Below, piece by piece: positions 10,546 through 59,820 of a stretch of 64,000 nt of DNA. The notes beneath the pieces were generated by a model. That model worked only from the letters and a program-made list of their open reading frames with translations. It did not search any database and had not been told where the DNA came from. Both the position numbers and the translations under genes were made by a program. The stretch is from Candidatus Doudnabacteria bacterium. GTDB lineage: Bacteria; Patescibacteriota; Doudnabacteria; UBA920. Location: assembly GCA_963768175.1 (NCBI GenBank), contig CAVYGQ010000001.1:382305-446304 (forward strand). Reading direction: 5' to 3'. Position 1 is the stretch's first letter, and every line of letters begins with the position of its first letter.

Positions 10546-10642
10546 TTAAATGACAAAAATTAAATAAATGACAAAATTGACAAAAATGCAAATCAGCTAA
10601 TTTTTTAATTTTTATTATTTTTGCTCATTTTTGTCATTTCCC
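10546..10642. repeat. family A intergenic palindromic element
   Basis: taaatgacaaaaattaaataaatgacaaaattgacaaaaatgc ... atttttgctcatttttgtcatttcc. Confidence 0.75.
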
Positions 10643-11163
10643 ATTTTTACCCTGCCTTCGTTTTGGCGAACCGGTATGTCTTCGGAAAAAATCTGTCCCA
10701 ATTCCCGCTGCCATTTTGGGTTTTCGGCATAAATTTCCACTTTTACCCCGGCTTCTTTAAGCATATCCAAAGCGGCGGGGTTCCTGTAAACTTTGCCGAT
10801 GACAACTCTTTTAACGCCGGCGGCAATAACATATTTGGCGCAGTGGATGCATGGGCTGTACTTGGTATACATTGTGGAGCCGTCCGTACTGGTACCACCC
10901 TGCTTGGCCGCCTGAAGCAGCGAATTATGTTCGCCGTGGATAGTGCGCACGCAATGCCCTTCTTCCAAAAGATGCCCGACGTCGTCGCAGTGCGGCAGGC
11001 CCGGCGGCGAGCCGTTATAGCCCGTGGCGATTATGCGGTTATCTTTTACCAAAACCGAACCCGCGTACAGCCGGTCGCAGGTCCCCCTAGAAGCCACAAT
11101 TTTGACTATTGCCATGAAATAATCGTCCCAAGAAGGCCTAAAATGCTTGCGTTCTTCTACCAT
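10615..11163 (-). CDS. dCMP deaminase (ComEB/CDA fold)
   Basis: Zinc ligands HAEHNSLL and PCIHCAKYV, typical of the deoxycytidylate deaminase family. The likely start is MVEERKHF at 11163. Confidence 0.85.
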   Translation of the reverse strand: MVEERKHFRPSWDDYFMAIVKIVASRGTCDRLYAGSVLVKDNRIIATGYNGSPPGLPHCDDVGHLLEEGHCVRTIHGEHNSLLQAAKQGGTSTDGSTMYTKYSPCIHCAKYVIAAGVKRVVIGKVYRNPAALDMLKEAGVKVEIYAENPKWQRELGQIFSEDIPVRQNEGRVKMGNDKNEQK

Positions 11164-11265
11164 AGTATTAACGACAAGAATGACATGATTGGGCAAGAAT
11201 GGCAAAAATTACAAATCTAAATCGTGTCAATCTTTTAATTCTTTTAAATCTTGCTCATTTCATCT
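11164..11265. repeat. degenerate family A-like element
   Basis: gacaagaatgacatgattgggcaagaatggcaaaaatt ... tcttgctcatttcatc. Confidence 0.4.
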
Positions 11266-11354
11266 ATTCTACACCAATTTTGGCCGGTTGACAAAATCCA
11301 AAAAAACAAAAAAACCTTAATAAATTAAACAGTTTTGGACGTCTTTTATCCTTT

Positions 11355-11388
11355 TGTTGCACTTACGCCCGGCCGAGCGTAAGTGCAA
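11355..11388. promoter_or_regulatory. perfect hairpin/palindrome GTTGCACTTACGCC-CGGCCG-AGCGTAAGTGCAAC abutting the -35 of promoter P_A
   Basis: 14-bp arms; operator- or terminator-like. Confidence 0.5.
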
Positions 11389-11390
11389 CA

Positions 11391-11419
11391 GTTGACAAAA
11401 AACTTTAAATGCCTTAAAA
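11391..11419 (+). promoter_or_regulatory. near-consensus sigma70 promoter P_A (TTGACA-17-TAAAAT)
   Basis: TTGACA at 11391-11396, a 17-nt spacer, and TAAAAT at 11414-11419. Confidence 0.6.
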
Positions 11420-11427
11420 TACCCACA

Positions 11428-11505
11428 AATGAGCAAATTCATCTCTTCCAGCATAATCATTATTATTACTCCGACGCCGCTTGGCATGGGAAGAGTTTTA
11501 GTGTA
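11428..11505 (+). CDS. 25-codon leaderless ORF MSKFISSSIIIIITPTPLGMGRVLV (leader-peptide-like or small hydrophobic peptide)
   Basis: The ATG lies about 8 nt after the -10. Five consecutive Ile codons (ata atc att att att) occupy 11452-11466. Stop TAA at 11503. An intrinsic terminator follows 20 nt downstream. Confidence 0.45.
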
Positions 11506-11524
11506 AATTGATTTAAACTCCAAA

Positions 11525-11553
11525 CCCCTAGCCTAAGCGGCTAGGGGTTTTTT
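11525..11553 (+). terminator. intrinsic terminator CCCCTAGCC-taa-GCGGCTAGGGG + T6
   Basis: Stem-loop followed by TTTTTT. Confidence 0.7.
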
Positions 11554-11715
11554 GTTGATGATTTTGTAGTGTGCCGATTTATCGGCCTTCATCGATCGCC
11601 CATAAATGGGCACGCTACACTTGTGACCGGAAAGACGGCAATTTAATAAAACTGCTATCTTTGCGGCCAGAATCTGTGGCCGAATCCAAGACAAACCCAA
11701 GGAGGGCAACTAAAG

Positions 11716-12008
11716 TGAGCTGGCATATATACGACGCGACAGTAGCATCGCGGCAGGAAGATGGCACCATAGCTGTGCATTTGGTAGGCGCAGACATGGA
11801 GCCGCTCAGCATTAGCGGAACTGTGCTGATGGCAGAACGACTGACCACCATTGTGGTCCACAGCACCGTAACCGATAGCGGCAAACCGCTGTTCACTCCG
11901 CGCAACGATGTACTCTACCTTGATCCGGAATCCGGAAAGGCAGCGTACGATCCTTCCGTACTCGTTCCCGGCCTCGAGGCCGAGGAACCTTCTCTCGTAG
12001 GGGTCTGA
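11716..12008 (+). CDS. hypothetical small protein (97 aa), GC-rich (about 58%)
   Basis: GTG start 7 nt after a perfect SD AAGGAGG. Composition is foreign relative to the flanks. A terminator lies at 12039-12086. The alternative upstream GTG at 11571 lacks an SD. Confidence 0.5.
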
Positions 12009-12038
12009 TATGAAAAACCCCAAAACAGCTCTTTCTTC

Positions 12039-12086
12039 CGGCAGTCGGCGTGCTTTCAGGTCGCCGCCGACTGCCCACCCTTTTTT
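12039..12086 (+). terminator. intrinsic terminator CGGCAGTCGGCG...CGCCGCCGACTGCC + T6
   Basis: GC-rich stem followed by cacccTTTTTT. Confidence 0.7.
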
Positions 12087-12092
12087 ACAAAT

Positions 12093-12121
12093 TTGACAAA
12101 CTTTTACCAATCCTTTAATAT
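12093..12121 (+). promoter_or_regulatory. near-consensus sigma70 promoter P_B (TTGACA-17-TAATAT)
   Basis: TTGACA at 12093-12098 and TAATAT at 12116-12121. Confidence 0.6.
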
Positions 12122-12128
12122 ACCAACA

Positions 12129-12224
12129 ATGCACCGAAATAATTTAAACAATTTAAACCTCTTGCTTAGCCTCCTTACTTTTGTAAGGGGTTTTGGGCTT
12201 AGATTGCAAGCATCTCCGGTATAA
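12129..12224 (+). CDS. 31-codon leaderless ORF MHRNNLNNLNLLLSLLTFVRGFGLRLQASPV (Leu-rich leader-peptide-like)
   Basis: The ATG lies at the predicted TSS. There are 5 Leu in a 6-residue run (LLLSLL) and 3 more upstream. Stop TAA at 12222. A terminator follows 26 nt downstream. Confidence 0.45.
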   Translation: MHRNNLNNLNLLLSLLTFVRGFGLRLQASPV

Positions 12225-12250
12225 ATTTTAGGCAAATCTAATTTTCCTTA

Positions 12251-12271
12251 AGCCCCGCAAGGGGCTTTTTT
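12251..12271 (+). terminator. intrinsic terminator AGCCCC-gcaa-GGGGCT + T6
   Basis: Stem-loop followed by TTTTTT. Confidence 0.7.
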
Positions 12272-12344
12272 GTTGATAGAAAAATGTTTATCGTTTTGGT
12301 GAATATTTTTGTATCTATAAATTCTATGTTCAAGGAGGATAGAG

Positions 12345-12677
12345 GTGATACACCTAGTGGGAATTAAAGCATTCCAGAGTTACGAATCTCACGCAGAAGC
12401 TGTTTTCCTTATCGGCGGAAAGGAAGTCAGAGACACGATTACCGCAATTGACCGAATCAGCGTGAATAAAGTCAAAGGGTTCCAATTGCAGTTTGGCGCA
12501 CTGATGGTCGTGCTATTCCCCGATATTAACGGCGGTGTGGGCGCCGCCAGTGACGGCGATGAGACGCTGGAGGAATTGCAGCGCGCAATACCTCCGTTTC
12601 TCGGGACATCCGGCAACAGATACCCCAACCCGGATGACGATCCGGTTACCTGGGTCGCCGCTCGTTGCGGGATCTAA
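12345..12677 (+). CDS. hypothetical small protein (110 aa), GC-rich
   Basis: GTG start 6 nt after SD AGGAGG. A terminator lies at 12737-12779. No recognisable domain. Confidence 0.5.
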   Translation: MIHLVGIKAFQSYESHAEAVFLIGGKEVRDTITAIDRISVNKVKGFQLQFGALMVVLFPDINGGVGAASDGDETLEELQRAIPPFLGTSGNRYPNPDDDPVTWVAARCGI

Positions 12678-12736
12678 CCATACTGCTTCACCTCGCCTGC
12701 CCAAGCCCACCGGCCAAAGCAGGCAAACGCAACAAA

Positions 12737-12779
12737 GCCGGCAGACGCAAACCTACGCTGCCGGCTTCATCATTTTTTT
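12737..12779 (+). terminator. intrinsic terminator GCCGGCAG...CTGCCGGC + T7
   Basis: Stem-loop followed by ttcatcaTTTTTTT. Confidence 0.65.
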
Positions 12780-12854
12780 GAATTTCAAAAAATCATTATC
12801 AGCACTCTGTTTCACCAGCATCCCCCAAGCCAGAGACGGCGTTGAAAAAACACA

Positions 12855-13295
12855 TTAGTGAAAATTTTTAGAAAAATCCACTATTTCATAATTCGGCGGG
12901 GGGTCGCCTTTAAATAATTTTTCCTGGACAACTTTTAAAATCTCTTCAAAATTGTTCTCTGACTTTATCAAATACGCTTCTACGTTCAAACTCTTGGCCT
13001 CTTCCATTTCTTCCATACCGGAAAGGTTACTTAATACTATGACCGAAGTGTTGGCAATATTTTTGTCGGGATATTCCCGAATTCTTTTTAAAACATCCAA
13101 GCCTTTAATCTTCGGCAACAGCAAATCCAAAATTATTAATTTGGGCAAATGGAAGAGCAGTTTTTCCATTGCCTGTGAGCCGTCCTCGGCTATAGCGACT
13201 TCAAGTCCGTGTCCGGAAAGATAAGCGCTCAGGGCATTGCGAAAATCCAAATCATCCTCAATAATTAAGACTTTTTTTGAATTGTCGTCTGTCAT
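12855..13295 (-). CDS. single-domain response regulator (receiver/CheY-like)
   Basis: KVLIIEDDLDFRN, phospho-acceptor region ILDLLLPK, conserved T/S and K positions. There is no output domain. Confidence 0.85.
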   Translation of the reverse strand: MTDDNSKKVLIIEDDLDFRNALSAYLSGHGLEVAIAEDGSQAMEKLLFHLPKLIILDLLLPKIKGLDVLKRIREYPDKNIANTSVIVLSNLSGMEEMEEAKSLNVEAYLIKSENNFEEILKVVQEKLFKGDPPPNYEIVDFSKNFH

Positions 13296-13364: not shown

Positions 13365-13471
13365 TAGTAAACCCAGCACTAATTTTCCATCATACTCAAA
13401 TTTTTTTGTAATATATTTTGACACAAGTATTTTTCATCAAAATGTCAATTAAAGTGAAAATTAGTGCTGGG
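13365..13471. repeat. family D element: 16-bp terminal inverted repeats CCCAGCACTAATTTTC / GAAAATTAGTGCTGGG enclosing about 75 bp
   Basis: The right arm supplies the last 3 codons and the stop of the receiver gene at 13461-13895. A second copy is at 59715-59820. Confidence 0.6.
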
Positions 13472-13895
13472 TAAAATCCCACACTTCTTGGGTCTTTGCT
13501 TGGCTACTTCCAAACAAAATTTCTTTGATTTTGCCCATAACTTCTTTGGTCTTTGTCCGACTTTTAACAAAGTAGGCTAAAACGCCCATTTCCTGCCCCT
13601 TTTCAATATCGGCTTGGCTGGAGAGATTGCTCAAAATTATTACCGGCGTCTTGGCAATGTCTTCCTGCGGATAGCTTCTGATTCTTTTTAACACCTCAAA
13701 ACCGTGGACTTTTGGTAAAAGTAAATCCAAAACTACTATATCGGGATTTTGCGCCAACAGCCTTTCCATAGCCTGTTCACCGTCATCGGCTGCGCTTACG
13801 GAGAAGCCCTCAGCGGCTAAGGCGTCACGCAGGGAATTGCGAAAATCCAGATCGTCCTCAATAATTAAGATCTTTTTGAACATGTCGTCGGACAT
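13461..13895 (-). CDS. single-domain response regulator (receiver), paralog
   Basis: KILIIEDDLDFRN and VLDLLLPKVHG; paralogous to 12855-13295 and 18697-19101. Confidence 0.85.
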   Translation of the reverse strand: MSDDMFKKILIIEDDLDFRNSLRDALAAEGFSVSAADDGEQAMERLLAQNPDIVVLDLLLPKVHGFEVLKRIRSYPQEDIAKTPVIILSNLSSQADIEKGQEMGVLAYFVKSRTKTKEVMGKIKEILFGSSQAKTQEVWDFTQH

Positions 13896-33884: not shown

Positions 33885-34226
33885 ATGCCGGCACAGATCG
33901 TAGATGGCGATCTGGTGATTACACCAGCGCCAAAAACAACGGTTCGCCCGCTAAATGAGGAATGTGGAGGTCTCGCTGGAGACCTTGCCACCGCTAAATG
34001 CGCACCCGATGGAGAGCTGGTAGCGGCGGCCATTCCCGGAGTTGGAGAACTCCGAGGAAGAATGGAAAGCCTTCGAGGCAGCCCACCCCTCGGAAACCAA
34101 CCCGTTAAACGGGCTTCGCACGGAGCTCGATTGATGGCCGGAGTTCAACAACCATGCCGCGAGGACCTAGAGGTACCTCGCGGCGTTCTCTTTTCTTTAT
34201 TGTTCGAGCTTATCGAGAACCAATAA
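33885..34226 (+). CDS. hypothetical small protein (113 aa), GC-rich (about 60%)
   Basis: ATG 4 nt after AAGGAGG. Foreign composition and no recognisable domain. Confidence 0.5.
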   Translation: MPAQIVDGDLVITPAPKTTVRPLNEECGGLAGDLATAKCAPDGELVAAAIPGVGELRGRMESLRGSPPLGNQPVKRASHGARLMAGVQQPCREDLEVPRGVLFSLLFELIENQ

Positions 34227-48477: not shown

Positions 48478-48891
48478 ATGAAATCTTTCTCGATCTTGAC
48501 GGTAGTCTCCGTCCTGCTATGTGCCCTGCTGTTACAAGTACAGACAGCTCAAGCAGGAAAAGAAACGGGAGAAGGGAGGACTTTCCAGCTGGTACCGCTG
48601 GAAGACAGGAACGCTATCACCCCATACCCTTGTGGTGAATACTTCTTCGGGGCGAAAACCCCGAACGGGCAATTCATCCTCGGGTATGCCGTTAAGTATC
48701 CAAACGGCATCACGCACAACCACGTGCTTTTTAAAAAGCATGTGAGCACCAACATCGGCAAGGACGGGGAAGACCCGGCCGTCTGGGAAATGGAGAGCGG
48801 CATAGTCGTTCTCCGGATCTCAAAAAAGGACTACAGGAAGGCGAAAGCCTGCCTGCCAGAGCCAACAGACGATCGGTCCACGGCCCGCTGA
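48478..48891 (+). CDS. hypothetical secreted small protein (137 aa), GC-rich
   Basis: SD AAGGAGA 4 nt before the ATG; signal peptide MKSFSILTVVSVLLCALLLQVQTAQA; no recognisable domain; terminator at 48908-48976. Confidence 0.55.
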   Translation: MKSFSILTVVSVLLCALLLQVQTAQAGKETGEGRTFQLVPLEDRNAITPYPCGEYFFGAKTPNGQFILGYAVKYPNGITHNHVLFKKHVSTNIGKDGEDPAVWEMESGIVVLRISKKDYRKAKACLPEPTDDRSTAR

Positions 48892-48976: not shown

Positions 48977-49335
48977 ATTGGGTTTGTTGCTACTTTCACC
49001 CATTTTTGCTAACATACCAATTAAGTCCGACAGCCCCCTAAAAGGCGTTCCGGTGCAGGCTGGCCCCTCAAGCCATGTTTCCTGTCCAGATAATCGCACT
49101 TAAAAACGATGAATACCCGTTTACTGCGCTAGTTTGGGAACCGTGTCGTGGACGAGTTCGCAACCGTTGCGGCTTTAGAATTGGTAAGTCTTCGGCATTA
49201 GGCCGCAGACGGTTGCGCCCGCAGGGGAGGCGGGCACAAAACAGAGGACAAATCTAACTATTGGCGGCACCGCGCCATTGTTCGGCTGGCTCCAACGCAA
49301 CGCGGCCGTTCGGTGCAAACGGCCGCTTTTCTTTT
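48977..49335 (+). other. GC-rich structured non-coding stretch ending in an intrinsic terminator (candidate ncRNA)
   Basis: About 360 nt with no credible ORF and several GC stems (GTTGCGGC...GCCGCAGAC; GCCCGC-agggga-GGCGGGC). It ends with GCGGCCGTT-cggtgcaa-AACGGCCGC + TTTTCTTTT at 49300-49335. No tmRNA, RNase P, SRP or 6S signature was recognised. Confidence 0.3.
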
Positions 49336-49360
49336 GCCCTGATTTTGATAAAATTGAGAT

Positions 49361-59259: not shown

Positions 59260-59481
59260 ATGACGAACGCACGGCGTTTTGCGGAAGGCCGCAAAACGCA
59301 AATAGTCGAACCGGAAGCGGTATCGGCGATCAACGTGAGGGTCGGGACAAGGGACACGAGTCCTATAATCAGTACGCCGCTCTCACGCGAACAAGTCGAA
59401 CTGGAAGCGGCGATGTACAGGGAATTCCATCGACACGATGGGATTCCGCCTCAAGACCGCCCGCGGCTGTTGCGCGTCTGA
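59260..59481 (+). CDS. hypothetical small protein (73 aa), GC-rich (about 57%)
   Basis: ATG 7 nt after AGGAGA, a 5' UTR of about 105 nt, Arg/Pro/Glu-rich, no domain. Confidence 0.5.
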   Translation: MTNARRFAEGRKTQIVEPEAVSAINVRVGTRDTSPIISTPLSREQVELEAAMYREFHRHDGIPPQDRPRLLRV

Positions 59482-59714: not shown

Positions 59715-59820
59715 ATCCAGCACTAATTTCCGTAAGCAAGTTTTAATAACTAAATTGTCTTCGTGATCTTCAACGTAAAACCAGTGATACCAAAGTTTGC
59801 TTCTAAAAATTAGTGCTGGA
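59715..59820. repeat. family D element: TIRs TCCAGCACTAATTT / AAATTAGTGCTGGA enclosing about 78 bp
   Basis: The right arm ends 1 nt before the radA stop codon. It has the same TIR core as 13365-13471. Confidence 0.6.

Follow-up and report, generated by a model that had tools for sequence, protein, structure and literature searches.

Introduction

The closest described counterparts of the locus considered here are the enterobacterial leaders of ilvGMEDA (ilvL) and leu (leuL), which combine a short open reading frame (ORF) with Ile or Leu codons, a Rho-independent terminator and an upstream pairing that is mutually exclusive with it. To our knowledge, almost every known leader-peptide attenuator controls genes for biosynthesis, tRNA charging or transport. 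The first two of these elements, and a predicted form of the third, were found in two tandem modules, M1 and M2, in a stretch of 64,000 nucleotides (nt) from a Candidatus Doudnabacteria genome (contig CAVYGQ010000001.1, positions 382,305 to 446,304; this whole stretch is termed the window, and coordinates are counted from its first letter), where each module stands ahead of one small protein gene, ORF1 behind M1 and ORF2 behind M2. The locus probably consists of two attenuators with leaderless leader peptides, one responding to Ile and the other to Leu, which gate two exchangeable small-protein cassettes and belong to one lineage of the Patescibacteria.

Attenuators whose leader peptide begins at the very start of the transcript have been described from other phyla. 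Fourteen leaderless leader peptides were predicted in Deinococcus deserti (PMC4007540), leaderless polycysteine upstream ORFs act as attenuators in mycobacteria (10.1101/834739), and the ilvB, leuA and trp leaders are known from Corynebacterium glutamicum (PMC3890552, PMC11857589). As is predicted for M1 and M2, these leaders are translated from a 5'-terminal AUG, are enriched in one amino acid and control what lies downstream in cis.

The region between about 11,300 and 12,800 of the window had previously been singled out, from its letters alone, as a GC-rich island carrying two small orphan genes and taken for foreign DNA or else an assembly chimera. That original prediction overlooked the promoters, mini-ORFs and leader terminators that lie upstream of the two ORFs, and it is from these that the present reading starts.

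Two Tandem Leader Modules

The plus strand can be read as two tandem units, each predicted to consist of a sigma-70-type promoter, a leaderless mini-ORF, an intrinsic terminator, a structured 5' untranslated region (5'UTR) with a Shine–Dalgarno sequence (SD), a small protein gene and a terminator. In the first unit, promoter P1 (TTGACA-17-TAAAAT, 11392–11420) matches 11 of 12 consensus positions and is kept in nine related loci. The M1 mini-ORF of 25 codons, MSKFISSSIIIIITPTPLGMGRVLV (11429–11506), has its ATG 8 nt past the −10 box and contains a run of Ile codons (11453–11467), directly after which comes the putative antiterminator strand ACUCCGACGCCGCUUGGCAUGGG (11468–11490), able to pair with both arms of the intrinsic terminator at 11522–11556 (12-bp stem, 5-nt loop, T-run). 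The structured 5'UTR of ORF1 (11557–11714) follows, and then ORF1 itself (11715–12008, 97 amino acids) and a terminator hairpin with 11-bp perfect arms and a T-run (12040–12086).

The second unit repeats this order. Promoter P2 (TTGACA-17-TAATAT, 12093–12121) is followed by the 31-codon M2 mini-ORF, MHRNNLNNLNLLLSLLTFVRGFGLRLQASPV (12129–12224), with its ATG 7 nt past the −10 box and the Leu run LLLSLL at 12159–12176, and by an intrinsic terminator at 12250–12275. The 5'UTR of ORF2 (12276–12344), conserved in the related loci L173 and L174, holds two hairpins, the second of which encloses the SD (z −3.6); ORF2 occupies 12345–12677 (110 amino acids), and a terminator hairpin with a T-run at 12735–12779 is common to ORF2 and the convergent receiver gene, with about 80% identity in L173, L165 and L171.

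P1 and P2 are the sole strong plus-strand promoter matches and lie about 290 nt before the start of ORF1 and about 220 nt before that of ORF2, and the sole canonical intrinsic terminators, those of the two leaders, are both upstream of their ORFs. Since each ATG comes 7 to 8 nt past a −10 box, the transcript would be leaderless, and leader and small protein gene would share it. The signals around the ORFs that the original prediction did see were borne out: both ORFs start with GTG, preceded by a perfect AAGGAGG at 11699–11705, 9 nt ahead of ORF1, and at 12332–12338, 6 nt ahead of ORF2, and each ORF has a stem and T-run terminator of its own. The hairpin at 12040–12075 (−26 kcal/mol, z −5.5) is followed by CACCCUUUUUU and that at 12735–12767 (−21.4 kcal/mol, z −5.0) by UCAUCAUUUUUUU, with the T-runs 5 to 6 nt further on. 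The ORF2 coordinates also held, while the start of ORF1, placed at 11716, was off by one.

Two further features of the leader regions deserve mention. A stem-loop at 11655–11695, just 5' of the ORF1 SD (CTTTG-GCGGCCA...TGGCCG-CAAGA), has counterparts in L175, L165 and L174 with apparent compensatory changes, and it sits behind the M1 attenuator whatever the cargo gene. In addition, the Leu-run codons of M2 contain CCUCCUU (12170–12176), complementary to the AAGGAGG of both ORFs, so that judged by base complementarity a terminated M2 leader RNA could serve as an anti-SD in cis or in trans.

Conservation and Probable Translation of the Leaders

Relatives of the locus were recovered through orthologues of REC1, the receiver gene next to it (74–91% identity), which proved the productive anchor; genome and metagenome scans anchored on the neighbouring deaminase gene gave mainly relatives without the locus, L003 being the sole useful one. 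A scan for the anatomy of the modules (a promoter, an ATG 5–10 nt past the −10 box, an ORF of 12–45 codons and a terminator within 80 nt), run over both strands of 1.45 Mb, returned only M1/M2 modules and one spurious site inside an rplA gene, with nothing else real in the unrelated loci. A slightly looser scan yielded a further 11 modules, every one of them from relatives and at this locus, and four come in addition from L174 and L175. All of the relatives' modules fall in the same two families, with the consensus MSKF[IF]SSSIIIIITP..LG.GRVL. for the M1 type and ..NLNLLLSLL.FVRGFGFRL.. for the M2 type, and profile searches of 1.54 Mb of sequence found no such leaders elsewhere.

The leaders are as conserved as the genes that flank them: nucleotide identity to relatives is 74–89% for M1 and 75–84% for M2, compared with 81–89% for the deaminase and receiver genes. 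In all 16 modules the ATG lies 7–9 nt past the −10 box, and the mini-ORF frame is kept in all orthologues (nine for M1), with indels within the M1 mini-ORF mostly in multiples of three. The Ile run varies synonymously only, among ATA, ATC and ATT; five consecutive Ile codons are present in six orthologues and at least four within 6–8 codons in the rest. The Leu runs of M2 (LLLSLL, LLLSL, LLLNLLL or similar) likewise persist with synonymous changes. Frame, synonymous variation and ATG spacing thus point to translation of the mini-ORFs. The 3' half of the M1 ORF behaves differently, being conserved as nucleotides that the distant orthologue L003_B reads in another frame, and it would appear to be under constraint as RNA. 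The M1 terminator shows four pairs with compensatory changes, 94% of its cells are paired, and none of 500 shuffles reached its covariation score.

The same anatomy might be read in another way, with the leaders as independent small RNAs (sRNAs) or small hydrophobic, toxin-like peptides and with ORF1 and ORF2 expressed from promoters of their own that escaped recognition. An sRNA gene, too, is typically built of a promoter, some 130 nt and a terminator; the peptides are hydrophobic and have basic C-termini, and M2 carries the anti-SD complement described above. The gaps between leader terminator and ORF, 160 nt in M1 and 70 nt in M2, leave room for a weak promoter, and trans-acting sRNAs and leader peptides derived from attenuators are known (PMC6614838, PMC7298713). 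Neither gap, however, contains a promoter-like site, and in 16 of 16 modules the mini-ORF occurs together and co-oriented with a downstream ORF led by an SD. The hydrophobic stretches, about 11 residues long or broken by proline, are too short or too interrupted for a membrane helix, and the C-terminal half of the M1 peptide is not conserved as amino acids in L003_B. Moreover, the Ile and Leu runs directly before the antiterminator strand are the specific layout of an attenuator. Independent leaders are therefore unlikely. Type I toxin–antitoxin pairs were considered in the same connection and set aside: the leaders lack an antisense promoter of that kind, the sole minus-strand promoter-like match being a weak one (9 of 12 positions, 11487–11459, within the M1 mini-ORF), and the features of the peptides do not fit.

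A Predicted Ribosome-Dependent Switch

Under the attenuator reading, plentiful charged Ile- or Leu-tRNA would let the ribosome run through the segment just past the codon run, the antiterminator pairing would be lost and RNA polymerase would stop at the leader terminator. With the ribosome stalled in the Ile or Leu run, the antiterminator would hold the 5' arm of the terminator, and transcription would read through into the small protein gene.

This switch was modelled by folding transcripts cut before the 3' arm of the terminator, with a 30-nt ribosome mask moved along codon by codon; for M1, equilibrium folding of the full-length leader is uninformative, as the terminator dominates, and folding before the 3' arm says more. 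For M2 with the A site at or before the Leu run, the terminator 5' arm is sequestered at 0.92–0.98 in four of five leaders, and at 0.74 in the divergent L174. In those four leaders sequestration drops below about 0.3 once the A site is just past the run, and with no ribosome at all it is 0.10–0.49 (0.57 in L174). In the window's own M2 leader, values of 0.95–0.98 are reached only with the ribosome at or before the Leu run. For M1, sequestration is about 0.5–0.66 up to codon 14 in most leaders and about 0.01–0.25 at the codons past the run in six of nine orthologues, and a mask over the antiterminator strand frees the terminator 5' arm. Sequestration is thus lost where the regulatory codons end, which puts the predicted switch point where the classical model would have it. 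In silico, a ribosome-dependent antiterminator is predicted clearly for most M2 leaders and consistently, if more weakly, for M1.

The M1 antiterminator strand is nearly invariant among orthologues. The minimum-energy fold of L173 contains its pairing, and across nine sequences 87% of its cells are paired, as against 57–65% when the partners are slid by one column.

Exchange of Cargo behind Conserved Leaders

When the locus is aligned to its relatives, homology runs through the deaminase gene, the M1 leader and, as far as the SD, part of the 5'UTR that follows; it is also seen in the M2 leader and the 5'UTR behind it, in the last terminator and in the receiver gene. ORF1 is not homologous, and ORF2 is only faintly so. 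What stands behind the leaders differs from relative to relative. Behind M1 the window carries ORF1, which is unique, whereas L173, L174 and L169 carry a family A gene at that position, L175 and L165 one of family C, and L171 a 178-amino-acid orphan. Behind M2, family B is represented by ORF2 in the window and, in the corresponding position of L173 and L174, by its orthologues, and family D by genes in L175 and L166; no M2 cargo is assigned in L169, L165 and L171, and no M1 cargo in L166. L164 and L003 carry additional orphan cargo, and at least five unrelated cargo families stand behind the leaders.

The clearest case is L175, whose flanks are 88–89% identical to those of the window, yet neither cargo gene is in common. 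With flanks so similar and cargo unrelated, divergence cannot explain the difference, and the gene bodies must have been replaced between conserved flanks. Read by eye, the terminator arms that follow ORF1, CAGTCGGCG/CGCCGACTG, also close the M1 cargo gene of L175. The regulatory scaffold would have been inherited vertically, with the genes behind it replaced or exchanged between relatives, and ORF1 and ORF2 would be the cargo versions of this genome.

The cargo genes share two features of composition. In every relative they are 1–13 GC points above their own genome, so that GC-richness is a trait of this gene class and not the mark of one recent import. They are also poor in the residue that their leader would sense: M1 cargo has 4.6% Ile against 7.2% in the host (P 0.006, one protein per family), and M2 cargo 7.1% Leu compared with 10.2% (P 0.012 when pooled and 0.07 when each family contributes one protein). 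Depletion does not extend to the non-cognate residue, Ile in M2 cargo being normal at 7.5%. Such depletion of the cognate residue is what is expected of proteins needed when that amino acid is scarce.

Searches for relatives of the two proteins largely upheld the claim that they are small orphans without a recognisable domain. A word-indexed search of 5.8 billion proteins returned only the self match for ORF1 and for ORF2, and no match was found for nine cargo proteins, these two included, in Pfam, PHROGs, PADLOC or NCBIfam. ORF1 has no detectable kinship with the genes at the same position in relatives and is a strict orphan. ORF2 is essentially one, belonging to a three-member family: filter-free HMMER against 1.84 billion representatives found two true relatives, of 116 and 129 amino acids with 44% and 36% identity, and two further matches that are repetitive false positives. 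A likeness of ORF1 to cargo family A suggested by eye (DSGKPLFTPRND against DEGHYFVGLRPEND) was not supported by hmmsearch and hhalign. The AF2 single-sequence model of ORF1 is all-beta (pLDDT 63) and the AF2 model of ORF2 has a confident beta-rich core at residues 1–84 (pTM 0.66), and these models suggest that both are small beta-rich proteins. Foldseek of the models against the PDB assigned no fold (best E 0.55 for ORF1 and 0.36 for ORF2).

Coding Status and Composition

Both ORFs were scored with a 3-periodic Markov model for which 36 long genes of the window served as the training set. Per 100 nt, ORF1 scores +4.7 and ORF2 +3.4 in the annotated frame, and window genes outside the training set score 4.7–7.2; the remaining five frames are negative. 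Both ORFs are hence coding, in a style close to that of the host. This weighs against the notion that the GC-rich stretches are structured RNAs or ORFs that arose by chance. In its favour, a GC-rich island in an AT-rich genome often turns out to be a structured RNA, and the strand opposite ORF1 does carry long ORFs of 159 and 96 codons. The annotated frame, however, is the only one of six to score positive and does so in the range of host genes, every cargo position has an SD and a start codon, the ORF2 protein is conserved in frame and its core is predicted to fold, and there is no Rfam match. An origin of the ORFs in structured RNA or chance is accordingly very improbable.

In composition the ORFs stand out less than had been claimed. 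They are richer in GC than the 44.8% of the window, at 57.1% for ORF1 (z +3.0) and 53.5% for ORF2 (z +2.2) relative to 60 host genes, but do not both reach the 57–60% given in the original prediction. The excess is mainly at codon position 1 (z 3.7 and 2.6), that is, in amino-acid composition, with GC at position 3 mildly raised (z 1.4 and 1.2). Tetranucleotide distance puts ORF1 among the most deviant 0.6% of segments and ORF2 among the most deviant 11%, and synonymous-codon likelihood (−0.03 and −0.05, against 0.083 ± 0.046 for host genes) places both at the low edge of the host range. A GC-rich island of 1.5 kb was not recovered, as the stretch overall has 47% GC and lies at the 76th percentile of tetranucleotide distance, which is not deviant. 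Since its intergenic parts have 38–39% GC, the "island" resolves into two GC-rich gene bodies within ordinary AT-rich DNA. About 17 other 300-nt stretches of the window have at least 56% GC.

Among other GC-rich places in the window are three small ORFs preceded by an SD and with atypical codon usage, at 33885–34226, 48478–48891 and 59281–59481, none of which has an M1 or M2 leader ahead of it. The first has a negative host-trained coding score and may be non-coding, and the second has a signal-peptide-like N-terminus. A non-coding stretch at 49000–49340 (about 52–56% GC), which follows a promoter-like site and ends in a terminator-like hairpin, has no Rfam match even at E ≤ 0.1 and is a candidate structured RNA.

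Genomic Setting and Origin

The window is a chromosome segment of the Patescibacteria (candidate phyla radiation), taken from a 949-kb contig; judged by identity of the dCMP deaminase, the named metagenome-assembled genome nearest to it is one of Candidatus Doudnabacteria. ORF1 and ORF2 form a plus-strand pair between a minus-strand dCMP deaminase gene (10615–11205) and two minus-strand genes for CheY-like single-domain receivers, REC1 (12855–13295) and REC2 (13461–13895), and the wider neighbourhood holds the genes for ribosomal proteins L1 and L11 and for NusG, as well as genes of nucleotide metabolism (dUTPase, dCMP deaminase). In the usual Patescibacteria arrangement the L1 gene (rplA) is followed directly by the deaminase gene with nothing between. 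In the sub-lineage of the window the order is L1, usually one or two receiver genes, small opposite-strand ORFs and then the nucleotide-metabolism genes. This layout was found, whole or in part, in L003, L164, L165, L166/L167, L169/L170, L171/L172, L173 and L175, and in L174 without a receiver gene; in most relatives receiver genes accompany the locus between rplA and the deaminase gene.

Three observations on the surroundings may be added. In L168 (5548–10280), just after the receiver gene, an insertion sequence (IS) element (HTH and rve transposase), a 324-amino-acid orphan and an integrase fragment replace the leader modules, and the site appears to be an insertion hotspot. In a metagenome-assembled genome of Candidatus Buchananbacteria, the profile of the M1 leader matches weakly, over its 3' half (E 0.007), at L009:5668–5757, in a 1.3-kb gap between the L1 and deaminase genes, and on this match the site may be a distant version of the locus. 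Finally, the window holds two copies of a 13-nt inverted-repeat pair, CCAGCACTAATTT ... AAATTAGTGCTGG, whose arms are separated by about 75 nt, one copy in the 25%-GC spacer between the REC genes (13373–13470) and the other just 3' of a radA-like gene (59717–59819); its arms have four matches where 0.16 are expected, and it could be an element like a miniature inverted-repeat transposable element or a shared operator or terminator.

That the locus is an artefact of metagenomic assembly, as had been allowed for, is suggested by the compositional contrast only. In the Logan assembly of run ERR10755942, a 3,683-bp contig from a second assembler spans the deaminase gene, ORF1, ORF2, both receivers and the L1 gene and is identical across both junctions; it possibly comes from the same reads, in which case its independence is that of the assembler only. 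Gene order and leaders are repeated, moreover, in 11 related loci on contigs from other samples, and the chance of a chimera is negligible.

A more serious alternative is that the whole 1.5 kb is recently acquired foreign DNA, with moron-like modules from a high-GC donor or a mobile element. The GC and tetranucleotide values of ORF1, the low synonymous-codon likelihood of both ORFs and the complete lack of ORF1 homologues would all fit, as would the IS element at the same site in L168, and the direct junction of rplA and deaminase gene in most Patescibacteria makes the locus an insertion at some depth of the tree. Against this, the stretch as a whole is not deviant in composition, the deviance being confined to the ORF bodies. 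The regulatory parts are AT-rich, of host type and 75–89% identical in the same position across the 11 related loci; this scaffold is present in 11 of 11 relatives recovered, and only the ORF bodies are patchy. ORF2 has orthologues in L173 and L174, and the host-trained model scores both ORFs like host genes. Integrase, tRNA and flanking direct repeats are all lacking, and no phage or viral similarity was found by blastn against phage GenBank or in viral contigs scanned with the two proteins and the two leader motifs; housekeeping genes, not a prophage, surround the locus. Recent acquisition as a unit is thus quite unlikely. Of the lateral origin first proposed, what stands is that gene bodies were exchanged and that ORF1 is unique; comparison of synteny shows cargo genes that differ within a shared layout and no private insertion.

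Interpretation and Significance

The reading that is held to be probable, Ile- and Leu-responsive attenuators gating exchangeable cassettes, rests on a leader ORF, a cluster of codons for the sensed amino acid and a terminator ahead of the structural gene, all of which are present in both modules. Several points weigh against it. Transcription start, termination and readthrough are all predicted, and the leaders were examined at this one locus of a 949-kb genome. Covariation of the M1 antiterminator is weak, its score being reached by 25 of 500 shuffles, because the strand hardly varies. In the full-length M1 leader at equilibrium the terminator wins at any ribosome position in six of nine orthologues, so the M1 decision would have to be kinetic and co-transcriptional. 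Kinetic decisions of this kind are made in known attenuators. M1 also has no clear anti-antiterminator, its ribosome-free state resembling the stalled one. No Rfam leader family matches the region, where searches at E ≤ 10 gave chance-level hits only (the best from leader families were Phe_leader, with 18.8 bits on the opposite strand where the gathering threshold is 55, and rnk_leader, with 17.9 bits where it is 50). Lastly, the cargo genes do not serve the biosynthesis, tRNA charging or transport of the amino acid that would be sensed or otherwise belong to its metabolism; their sole link to it is the depletion of the cognate residue, and that test is small and may partly reflect the general GC-richness of the cargo.

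A candidate phyla radiation bacterium is presumed to have no amino-acid synthesis of its own, and Ile and Leu biosynthesis is expected to be lacking. A tentative and rather doubtful extension of the attenuator reading is that the leaders act as hunger sensors, switching on small proteins exchanged between strains instead of biosynthesis. The cargo might then be starvation effectors, toxins or dormancy factors directed toward the host cell, with the leaders and terminators doubling as recombination anchors.

If the attenuators are real, leader-peptide attenuation would extend to a new phylum and to a new kind of target; a full-text search of the literature found no report joining Patescibacteria with leader-peptide attenuation. 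The locus would also offer a handle on nutrient sensing in reduced, host-dependent bacteria and a defined set of small proteins likely to matter in starvation. More generally, orphan ORFs are not necessarily foreign because they are GC-rich and their genome AT-rich, and what was informative here lay in AT-rich "intergenic" DNA that gene callers skip.

Comparison with Described Systems

The E. coli ilvL peptide ends in ...VVVIIIPPCGAALGRGKA and the leuL peptide in ...LLLLNAFIVRGRPVG. The former resembles the M1 tail, ...IIIIITPNAAKALGRVLV, and the latter the M2 tail, ...LLLSLLTFVRGFGLR, a likeness that probably arises from the translation of GC-rich stems. Unlike ilvL and leuL, M1 and M2 have no SD and place the start codon at the predicted transcription start, they match no Rfam leader model, and their targets are small hypervariable proteins in place of biosynthetic enzymes.

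Phage morons, to which the ORFs had been likened, are compact units of promoter, gene and terminator whose orphan gene exceeds the surrounding DNA in GC, and to that extent the ORF1 and ORF2 units are like them. They differ in that a conserved scaffold of the host supplies promoter and terminator, a probable leader attenuator separates promoter from gene, and there is no prophage, so that self-contained phage modules are not an apt description. Integron cassettes, which come with an integrase, attC flanks and no promoter, offer another comparison; no integrase turned up among those ORFs of the window that lie near the locus, and what is conserved on either side of the cargo is a 5'UTR and a terminator.

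In Sinorhizobium meliloti an attenuator gives rise to the sRNA rnTrpL and the leader peptide peTrpL (PMC6614838, PMC7298713), and by speculative analogy the terminated M2 leader, with its anti-SD-like CCUCCUU, and its peptide could act in trans. The leaders of Deinococcus, mycobacteria and Corynebacterium, in phyla rich in leaderless mRNAs, stand before genes for tRNA synthetases, amino-acid biosynthesis or cysteine-related functions. M1 and M2 stand instead before orphan cassettes, in which small proteins of fast turnover are led by strong SDs.

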